A DNA stretch of 30,710 bases from positions 1-30,710 of IMG/VR virus record IMGVR_UViG_2529293040_000025, one strand, 5' to 3'. Within the stretch, counting starts at the first letter, position 1, and every line of letters begins with the position of its first letter. A program made the position numbers and the translations under genes. The notes under the pieces were generated by a model. That model was not told the origin of the DNA. It did not search any database and was given only the letters and a program-made list of their open reading frames with translations. Positions 12,464 through 13,273 of this stretch are shown piece by piece. Origin of the DNA: a virus (lineage: Duplodnaviria > Heunggongvirae > Uroviricota > Caudoviricetes).

Positions 12464-13273
12464 ATGAATAATCTGATGGTCATTGATGGTATTGAAGTTC
12501 GTCGTGATGCTTATGGGCGTTACAGCCTGAACGATCTGCATCGCGCAGCAGTAGCATCTGGTGCAAATGCCAGAACCAAGGAGCCAGGAAAGTTTCTTTC
12601 CAGCCAACAAACTGTTGAGCTTGTTCATGAATTAACCAACACCCAGAATTTGGGTGTTGACCCGGTGAGTGTGATTCATGGGGGAAATGAACGGGGAACG
12701 TATGTCTGTAAGGAACTGGTGTATGCCTATGCAATGTGGATCAGCCCGTCATTCCATCTGAAGGTGATCCGTACTTTCGATATGGTAACCAGCGCGCCGG
12801 AAAAGTTATCCGGACAGGCTGCTGACAAGATGCAGGCTGGCGTGATCCTGCTGGACTTTATGCGCCGGGAGTTAAATCTGTCTAACTCTTCAGTGCTTGG
12901 TGCCTGTCAGAAACTCCAGGAGGCTGTTGGCTTACCGAATCTGGCACCGCGCTATGCCATTGATGCTCCTGCTGACGCGCCTGATGGCTCAAGCCGCCCG
13001 ACACTGTCACTGAGTGCACTGCTGAAGCAGTATGGTATCCGCCTGACAGCTAATCAGGCATATCACCAGATGGCGAAGCTGGGGATCGTTGAACAACGTG
13101 AACGATACAGCCGTACCGCGATTAACAACATCAAAAAATTCTGGTCGCTGACGGCGAAAGGCTGCATGTTCGGCAAGAACATCACCAGTCCCGCAAATCC
13201 GCGCGAGACGCAGCCGCATTTCTTCGAATCCCGATTCCCTGAGCTGTTAAAGCTACTCGATACCGTTCATTGA
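12464..13273 (+). CDS. KilA-N domain protein
   Basis: N-terminal region (IDGIEVRRDAYGRYSLNDLHRAA...GTYVCKELVYAYAMWISPSFHLKVIRTF) fits the KilA-N fold pattern; C-terminal 150 aa unassigned. Confidence 0.55.
   Translation: MNNLMVIDGIEVRRDAYGRYSLNDLHRAAVASGANARTKEPGKFLSSQQTVELVHELTNTQNLGVDPVSVIHGGNERGTYVCKELVYAYAMWISPSFHLKVIRTFDMVTSAPEKLSGQAADKMQAGVILLDFMRRELNLSNSSVLGACQKLQEAVGLPNLAPRYAIDAPADAPDGSSRPTLSLSALLKQYGIRLTANQAYHQMAKLGIVEQRERYSRTAINNIKKFWSLTAKGCMFGKNITSPANPRETQPHFFESRFPELLKLLDTVH

Follow-up and report, generated by a model that had tools for sequence, protein, structure and literature searches.

Phage proteins that exchange domains with one another are grouped in the Bro network, which is said to go back to Iyer, Koonin and Aravind in 2002. 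A counterpart from phage P1, KilA, has an N-terminal domain (head) of the same family as the KilA-N protein considered here and is of similar length; our protein is encoded on the plus strand at positions 12464-13273 of the IMG/VR virus record IMGVR_UViG_2529293040_000025, a stretch of Caudoviricetes DNA whose full 30,710 nucleotides are referred to below as the window. Regulated antirepressors are represented by P22 Ant in immI and by the LexA-controlled Gifsy, 186 Tum and N15 types. The Pfam families of the Bro network are KilA-N, Bro-N, Phage_pRha, ORF6N, AntA, P22_AR_N/C, ANT, ORF11CD3 and Phage_ASH (PMC10111431). Among the described systems nearest to our locus, Roi is a nin-region protein that binds DNA (Clerget and Boccard, 1996, as cited in PMC3430580), whose gene lies just downstream of that for Ant in the genomes of Shiga toxin (Stx) phages and which has been implicated in the lytic growth of HK022 (PMC3430580). 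The C-terminus of Ant from phage Phi24B resembles that of P22 Ant (82% identity over 104 residues), and deletion of the Phi24B ant gene reduced the output of the late promoter pR' during induction to approximately 27-56% of the wild type and left superinfection unaffected (Fogg et al., 2011, PMC3064807). Finally, BstA is the abortive-infection protein of the BTP1 prophage (Owen et al., 2021, PMC8585504).

On balance, and with moderate confidence, we consider the KilA-N gene of the window to encode an accessory DNA-binding regulator of early lytic development that belongs to the Bro network, with the Ant, Roi, Rha, KilA and Bro proteins as its kin. It is an intact, ordinary and widespread early gene of this network, very common in lambdoid prophages, and what is new is a member, or combination, within a known kind, whose C-terminal half (tail) lies outside Pfam. 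An earlier interpretation of the locus from its letters alone (the sequence-only reading) had placed an open reading frame (ORF) with a KilA-N N-terminal domain downstream of rusA, and it was right on both counts: the ORF is real, runs from ATG to TGA over 269 aa behind its own ribosome-binding site (RBS), and bears the RefSeq product name 'KilA-N domain-containing protein', while its residues 7-109 match PF04383 over profile positions 5-105 of 107 with a score of 79.2 bits, where the cut-off is 23.8 (E=2.4e-22), which makes the protein a member of this family. The gene and the parts of its product are the following:

12464-13273, plus strand: complete coding sequence of the KilA-N domain-containing Bro-network protein, identical to RefSeq WP_001061444.1 and, as DNA, matched at 100% in two E. 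coli chromosomes
12482-12790, plus strand: KilA-N domain (Pfam PF04383), residues 7-109, with the AlphaFold secondary structure beta-beta-alpha...beta-beta-alpha-alpha
12551-12697, plus strand: hypervariable KilA-N cassette (residues ~30-78) that comprises two helices, a loop and a strand
12812-12928, plus strand: alpha-helical hairpin, residues ~117-155, with the conserved motif LNLSNSS.LG
12941-13006, plus strand: ordered linker without regular secondary structure, residues ~160-181, with the near-invariant P.YAIDAP....GSS.PT (pLDDT 88-89 in the tail-only model)
12998-13270, plus strand: tail core, residues ~179-269, beta-alpha-alpha-beta-beta-(alpha)-beta-beta-alpha (pLDDT 94-98), shared with Firmicute phages

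The tail (residues ~112-269) had been described as unassigned, and this holds insofar as it has no Pfam match at E<=1 and no NCBIfam match, with the best hit among PDB sequences reaching an E of only 0.34. It is, however, no orphan. The PHROGs entry phrog_129 ('transcriptional regulator') spans residues 1-267 of the protein (2e-124), the tail is also contained in phrog_6486 and phrog_8274, and residues 112-269 alone match 788 representative clusters (E<=1e-3; 1.84 billion representatives searched), mostly proteins of 250-285 aa that carry the match at their C-terminus. Among 78 diverse relatives, in which a Pfam scan assigned no family to the tail itself, the preceding head was Phage_pRha in 28, Bro-N in 17, KilA-N in nine, ORF6N in six, AntA in four and P22_AR_N in one, with rarer partners being a few helix-turn-helix (HTH) domains of the IclR, GntR, LysR and PadR types and a single DnaB_C; the architectures of the F10 protein (Bro-N head) and of APSE-2 G (KilA-N head) were confirmed individually. 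Since it stands behind at least six different phage DNA-binding heads, the tail is a portable cassette that is shuffled within the Bro network. The protein thus joins a network N-terminal module, KilA-N, to a tail that has recombined with five other heads of the network. Across sequences that are 24-57% identical, the residues Y164, D167, S176, S177, T180, R214, G237-K238-N239 and E248-T249-Q250-P251-H252 are near-invariant. Matches in the phages of Paenibacillus and Ruminococcus span only the last ~90 residues of the tail, which marks that part as the core unit.

The gene is, as we show here, a member of the early-right (nin) operon, where it lies between rusA and the DUF968 and Q genes and has no independent control. 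The features that define this setting are:

6663-7316: cI-type repressor gene (cognate CI)
12055-12444, plus strand: rusA, Holliday-junction resolvase (PF05866, E=6e-15), directly upstream in the same operon
12447-12454, plus strand: strong RBS AAGAGGAG, as read from the sequence, 9 nt 5' of the KilA-N ATG and 3 nt past the rusA stop
13281-13368, plus strand: 5' end (approximately the first 29 codons) of the DUF968/YdfU gene, interrupted by an insertion sequence (IS), as aligned to the uninterrupted locus L001
15800-16594, plus strand: antitermination protein Q, late-gene activator (PF03589, E=9e-53), which marks the end of the early-right operon

The rusA stop codon occupies positions 12442-12444 and the KilA-N ATG begins 20 nt later; given the position of the RBS immediately past that stop, translation of the KilA-N gene is closely coupled to that of rusA. 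A similar initiation region precedes rusA itself (repeat family D2), and the KilA-N stop is separated from the DUF968 start by 8 nt. Around the gene we found neither a promoter of its own above chance nor a plus-strand terminator; no LexA box was matched in or upstream of the rusA-KilA-N junction, the 17 matches found window-wide being at chance level (10+-3 expected), and no operator-like repeats or palindromes that might form an autoregulatory site were present near it. SOS control, an autoregulatory site and an independent promoter or terminator were all rejected for this gene. From cI it is 5.1 kb away in the direction of cro, and membership of the early-right operon implies that the KilA-N protein should be made only after the cI/cro switch flips.

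With regard to the junction itself, fusion proteins of RusA and KilA-N with lengths of 401-405 aa have been called in several assemblies, and in the 100%-identical chromosome NZ_CP016546 (locus L001, 12593-12981) rusA is annotated as frameshifted. Taken together, these calls suggest that frameshifts in rusA, or read-through at the 20-nt rusA/KilA-N junction, are recurrent.

The same placement recurs widely. DNA of the gene was detected in 2,282 of the 5,426 complete E. coli genomes (~42%) and in 54 phage records, including mEp460, cdtI and Stx2c-converting phages, and the protein search found the tail in SfV, SfII, SfIV and ST64B; the carriers include plaque-forming phages (mEp460, SfV, cdtI, ST64B and Stx2c phages). 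In mEp460 and in the uninterrupted E. coli prophage the order is (PerC)-(Dam)-LexA_DBD-RusA-KilA-N-DUF968-Q, which is that of the nin region and the early-right operon. Synteny and alleles were analysed in 80 viral contigs (loci L007-L086) whose tails are at least 99% identical, and the context of distant relatives was taken from annotated phages instead. RusA lies upstream in 77 of these 80 close loci and DUF968 downstream in 76, and Yersinia YeP1 and Vibrio Pm34, with tails that are 67% and 59% identical, respectively, also have this block of genes. Farther away, the tail-bearing gene follows cro at a distance of one to five genes in Medea1, Pagassa, RG-TP1 and SopranoGao, in the early-left operon in F10, and, in APSE-2, between polymerase/endonuclease genes and a helicase gene, beside two more genes of the Bro network. 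The constant feature in every phage examined, from those of E. coli to those of Paenibacillus and Ruminococcus, is an early lytic transcription unit.

The most notable detail of the KilA-N gene is the cassette inside its head, which, together with the invariant polar motif of the tail, is the only feature that might repay experiments. Among 97 close relatives, positional entropy is 1.0-1.6 at residues 31-80 and 0.1-0.7 at residues 121-260. In the 80 viral loci the cassette occurs as four sharply bounded alleles (A in 45-48 loci, B in 20-21, C in six and D in four), which have identical flanks on both sides and are joined to tails that are at least 98.7% identical. These alleles did not co-vary with the flanking +-3 kb (rusA, LexA-DBD, DUF968 and the Q region) and assort independently. 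The cassette looks like a recombining specificity determinant, the target of which is not encoded in the adjacent 3 kb.

The full-length AlphaFold2 model is confident (mean pLDDT 87.9) and has a pTM of 0.58, the latter value leaving the relative orientation of the domains uncertain; the tail alone was also modelled confidently, with a pLDDT of 92.4 and a pTM of 0.80. In the tail, the hairpin would presumably be a dimerisation or spacer element, and R214, G237-K238-N239 and E248-T249-Q250-P251-H252 are the invariant residues of the core. Sub-threshold Pfam signals in 51 diverse tails were mainly of the PadR type (11 of 51, best E 0.019), followed by GntR, HTH_27/33/34/45 and, in two of the 51, ANT. 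The Foldseek list of PDB structures for the tail was headed by winged-helix proteins (DnaD-N, PadR/LmrR, RepE, MukE, MarR and RTP), and no structure in BFVD matched it at E<=1e-3. These signals, although below threshold, are consistent among themselves in pointing to winged-helix DNA binders, and a winged-helix-like fold of the tail core is plausible but not established.

Given this, we propose that the KilA-N head would provide allele-specific recognition, most likely of DNA, as do other KilA-N/APSES domains, that the hairpin might mediate self-association, and that DNA or some universally conserved partner could be contacted, in a conserved manner, by the constant tail. Such a protein would on the whole serve to adjust or strengthen lytic development, as described for its positional analogues HK022 Roi and Phi24B Ant, and it would not be a BstA-type defence protein expressed in the lysogen. 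Several points weigh against this proposal. DNA binding, whether by the head or by the tail, is something that we infer, and since the alleles do not co-vary with the surrounding 3 kb, no cognate DNA site has been identified. Every winged-helix signal is individually non-significant (best E 0.019 in Pfam and 0.14 in Foldseek), and the polar residues of the tail (Y, D, S, S, T, R, K, N, E, Q and H) that are invariant from Proteobacteria to Firmicutes would also fit a catalytic or ligand-binding site. Moreover, the analogy with Roi and Phi24B Ant would be one of position and architecture only, the tail being without detectable homology to Roi, and Phi24B Ant being likened by its description; in the searchable literature we found no functional study of the KilA-N protein or of a close relative.

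Among the other explanations, it is conceivable, although unlikely, that the protein is a true antirepressor, whose tail or head binds and inactivates CI-type repressors, its own or those of co-resident prophages, thereby rendering the lytic switch irreversible or causing cross-induction. The tail does occur behind AntA, P22_AR_N, Bro-N and Rha heads, six of the 51 tails weakly match phrog_130 'anti-repressor Ant' (1.9e-5), relatives in F10, Pagassa and the R. gnavus phages are annotated as Ant or antirepressor, the place that the gene takes shortly behind cro in distant phages is classically that of 'ant', the swapped cassette could track repressor immunity types, and Phi24B Ant accelerates derepression (PMC3064807). 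The 'Ant' labels, however, come from annotation, not from experiment, and KilAC/ANT (PF03374) has no match in the KilA-N protein at E<=1, whereas in HK022 Roi (locus L003, 4656-5378), which consists of Phage_pRha and ANT and served as a positive control, ANT was recovered at E=9.7e-33; the two ANT signals among the 51 tails reached E~0.12. Neither BLASTP nor profile searches revealed any similarity of the tail to Roi, and the comparison of the two families by hhalign gave a probability of 0.1%. The idea that the tail is a diverged KilAC/ANT domain found no support in the Pfam ANT model or in hhalign against the Roi family; by these comparisons the protein is not a KilAC/ANT protein. Beyond the weak signals, no Pfam family, P22_AR_C included, was found on the 51 tails at E<=10, and the KilA-N gene shows no regulatory unit of the regulated-antirepressor type, be it a LexA box, a dedicated repressor or promoter, or an immI-like region. 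Also, polar residues that are invariant across phyla would not be expected in a protein that binds highly diverse repressors. Full-length homology to a characterised antirepressor, which the sequence-only reading had held to speak against a defence role, was likewise not found, and the kinship that it drew with antirepressors and BstA stands in its first part: the protein belongs to an antirepressor-like, domain-shuffling group with Rha, Bro-N, ORF6N, AntA and P22_AR_N heads, and is not of the BstA type.

Somewhat less probable still is a DNA-processing factor acting with RusA and the HNH-like DUF968 protein, in which the head targets branched or replicating phage DNA and the tail is catalytic or binds a cofactor. 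This would agree with the tight synteny of RusA, KilA-N and DUF968 over a range of 59-100% tail identity, with the match of DUF968 to HNHc_6, with the polar nature of the invariant tail residues, with a DnaB_C helicase domain joined to the tail in one relative, with the location of the gene among replication genes in APSE-2 and Medea1, and with the mixing of nuclease-related and DNA-binding domains in Bro-network proteins (PMC10111431; PMC8096241). We give equally little credence to the view that the tail is an undescribed cross-phylum effector on interchangeable heads, so that the cassette would program an early-lytic weapon or sensor in conflicts between phages or between phages and satellites; such a protein could act by cross-induction, by exclusion of co-resident elements or enzymatically on the targeted DNA, and it would thereby go beyond simple housekeeping regulation, the invariant polar constellation of the tail being Y164, D167, S176/S177, T180, R214, K238/N239 and E248/Q250/H252. 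A host-directed early 'kil' function like that of P1 KilA or P4 Eta/Kil, by which the protein would attach to the DNA or to a conserved protein of the host and arrest or reprogramme the cell, seems to us quite improbable. The KilA-N domain is named after the lethal P1 KilA, conservation of the tail across phyla suggests a universal target, and the gene is predicted from its operon position to be expressed early; furthermore, Kil, the truncated form of eta (a Bro-network gene of P4), acts in the killing of cells (PMC10111431). Against this, the KilAC/ANT domain is absent, and 42% of the complete E. coli genomes retain an intact gene, also where, as here, the prophage is defective, although such retention is only weakly informative on toxicity because the gene should be repressed in prophages. 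Least likely of all, and in our opinion very improbable, is the defence or exclusion role that the sequence-only reading had thought possible, namely BstA-like abortive infection in which the head senses incoming phage DNA and the tail blocks replication. What the two proteins have in common is a KilA-N(-like) head, a two-domain layout and a similar size (269 and 307 aa); a diversifying cassette would be compatible with an arms race, and the KilA-N core (residues 72-108) weakly matches the PADLOC candidate system PDC-S22 (1.6e-5), as it does in eight of the 78 relatives, all PADLOC matches of our protein being to candidate systems only and via this core. The PADLOC BstA model PDLC02356, however, which recognises BTP1 BstA (L004:28115-29035, minus strand), our comparator and positive control, at 1.9e-124 over residues 9-301, matched neither the KilA-N protein (E<=1) nor the 78 relatives (1e-3). 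BLASTP of the protein against BstA gave E=0.41, the tail profile against BstA a probability of 0.6% in hhalign, and the comparison of the two family profiles 10.6%, confined to 31 columns of the N-terminus, with no match in the tail. Precomputed Pfam annotation lists PF26567 (BstA-like C-terminal domain) for all BstA relatives and only PF04383 for the family of our protein, whereas our local Pfam scans are no test for PF26567, as genuine BstA scores no family there. Homology to BstA was rejected by all of these approaches (profile, BLASTP, profile-sequence and profile-profile). No tail match in BFVD, the placement in the lytic early operon without a promoter or terminator of its own and the constant place of the gene amid the lytic genes of phages that are productive argue in the same direction, and the proposed defence role is thus unsupported.

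In the window, the KilA-N gene is parted from its normal downstream partners by an IS that leaves the gene itself untouched:

13369-14918, plus strand: IS50-like (IS4-family) insertion sequence of 1,550 bp, with a transposase ORF at 13534-14907 and the ends CTGTCTCTTATACACA... and ...AGATCTGATCAAGAGACAG
14919-15828, plus strand: remainder of the DUF968/HNHc_6 gene (PF06147, E=3e-80), in which an ATG at 14923, within the target duplication, opens a 301-aa ORF

The element, flanked by the 8-bp target duplication GTTTATGC (13361-13368 and 14919-14926), interrupts the DUF968/YdfU gene at ~88 nt and lies between the KilA-N gene and Q. Polarity on Q is probable, and hence the prophage may be impaired in late-gene expression. 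Apart from this, the large terminase subunit (gpA) appears to be split into overlapping ORFs in different frames (24705-25493 and 25445-26674), the second of which matches the ATPase profile over its final ~55 positions only and contains the nuclease domain; this could reflect a frameshift in a defective prophage or a sequencing error.

Several further genes of the window deserve mention. At 11732-12058, two genes upstream in the module, lies a gene that is also conserved in mEp460 and SfV; it encodes a 108-aa protein with the LexA DNA-binding domain only (PF01726, E=3e-19), devoid of the S24 peptidase domain, which could be an uncleavable mimic of LexA or a competitor at SOS boxes in early lytic development. 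A second Bro-network protein (Phage_ASH and Phage_pRha, 387 aa) is encoded at 8218-9381, directly after a CII-like gene, and its coding sequence contains an exact CTGT-N8-ACAG match, CTGTAAGTAACCACAG, at 8321-8336. The early operon also includes a homologue of PerC-family transcriptional activators (10588-11082; PF06069, E=8e-9); the PerC/Pch homologues of enterohaemorrhagic E. coli prophages regulate the locus of enterocyte effacement. A Dam methyltransferase module (11049-11735) is present here and in mEp460 and absent from the near-identical prophage of NZ_CP016546 (L001), in which LexA-DBD directly follows PerC; this is a typical gain or loss of a mosaic module. Downstream of Q, in the region where Stx phages carry stx, the window encodes a TerB-domain protein (18041-18544) and a protein composed of DUF1737, SASA (sialate O-acetylesterase, NanS-p-like) and DUF6645 (19023-20876).

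The gene is of some consequence beyond this prophage, being carried by ~42% of complete E. coli genomes and by phages of the Stx2c, cdtI, SfV and ST64B types. Should the KilA-N protein act on late-gene (Q/pR') output in the manner of Phi24B Ant, an influence on the induction of toxin phages would be conceivable. The boundary and motif of the tail domain, which is found in ~788 representative clusters from phages of Gram-negative and Gram-positive hosts and lies outside Pfam, can be used by annotators, and the four-allele cassette is a convenient starting point for experiments on the targets that KilA-N domains recognise. At the same time, the KilA-N gene is removed from the list of candidate BstA-like defence genes.

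In comparison with known systems, BstA is likewise prophage-encoded and built of two domains, of which the head is KilA-N-like by HHpred only; here, BstA had no Pfam KilA-N match, its 307 aa compare with the 269 aa of a protein with a canonical KilA-N domain, and the heads of the two do not align significantly. While bstA is a stand-alone cassette directly downstream of cI with its own terminator, the KilA-N gene is buried in a lytic operon. P1 KilA ends, according to the Pfam description of PF03374, in a KilAC/ANT tail, which our protein does not have, and the named C-terminal modules of the Bro network, ANT/KilAC, P22_AR_C, ORF11CD3 and ORF6C, were undetected in the tail beyond weak matches (Pfam, E<=10). 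Phi24B Ant, an antirepressor-like accessory gene product that is encoded beside Roi in a lambdoid Stx phage, is the functional precedent for the role that we propose, likened by description only; its C-terminus is P22-Ant-like, whereas our tail matches no P22_AR or ANT model. Roi occupies the same niche, between the replication genes and Q, and has the two-module layout of the Bro network at a similar size (241 and 269 aa), but it carries a Rha head where our protein has KilA-N and an ANT tail that has no equivalent here. True homologues of the tail occur in cultured phages; they are 36-99% identical and share the same two-module layout, with heads that differ and names that stem from annotation: Pseudomonas F10 gp036 'Ant' joins the same tail to a Bro-N head, the 'Rha' proteins of Pseudomonas Medea1 and R. 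gnavus RG-TP1 and the Paenibacillus 'antirepressors' share it as well, and in SfV orf44, ST64B, cdtI orf50, mEp460_048 and APSE-2 gene G it follows a KilA-N head, exactly as in the protein described here.

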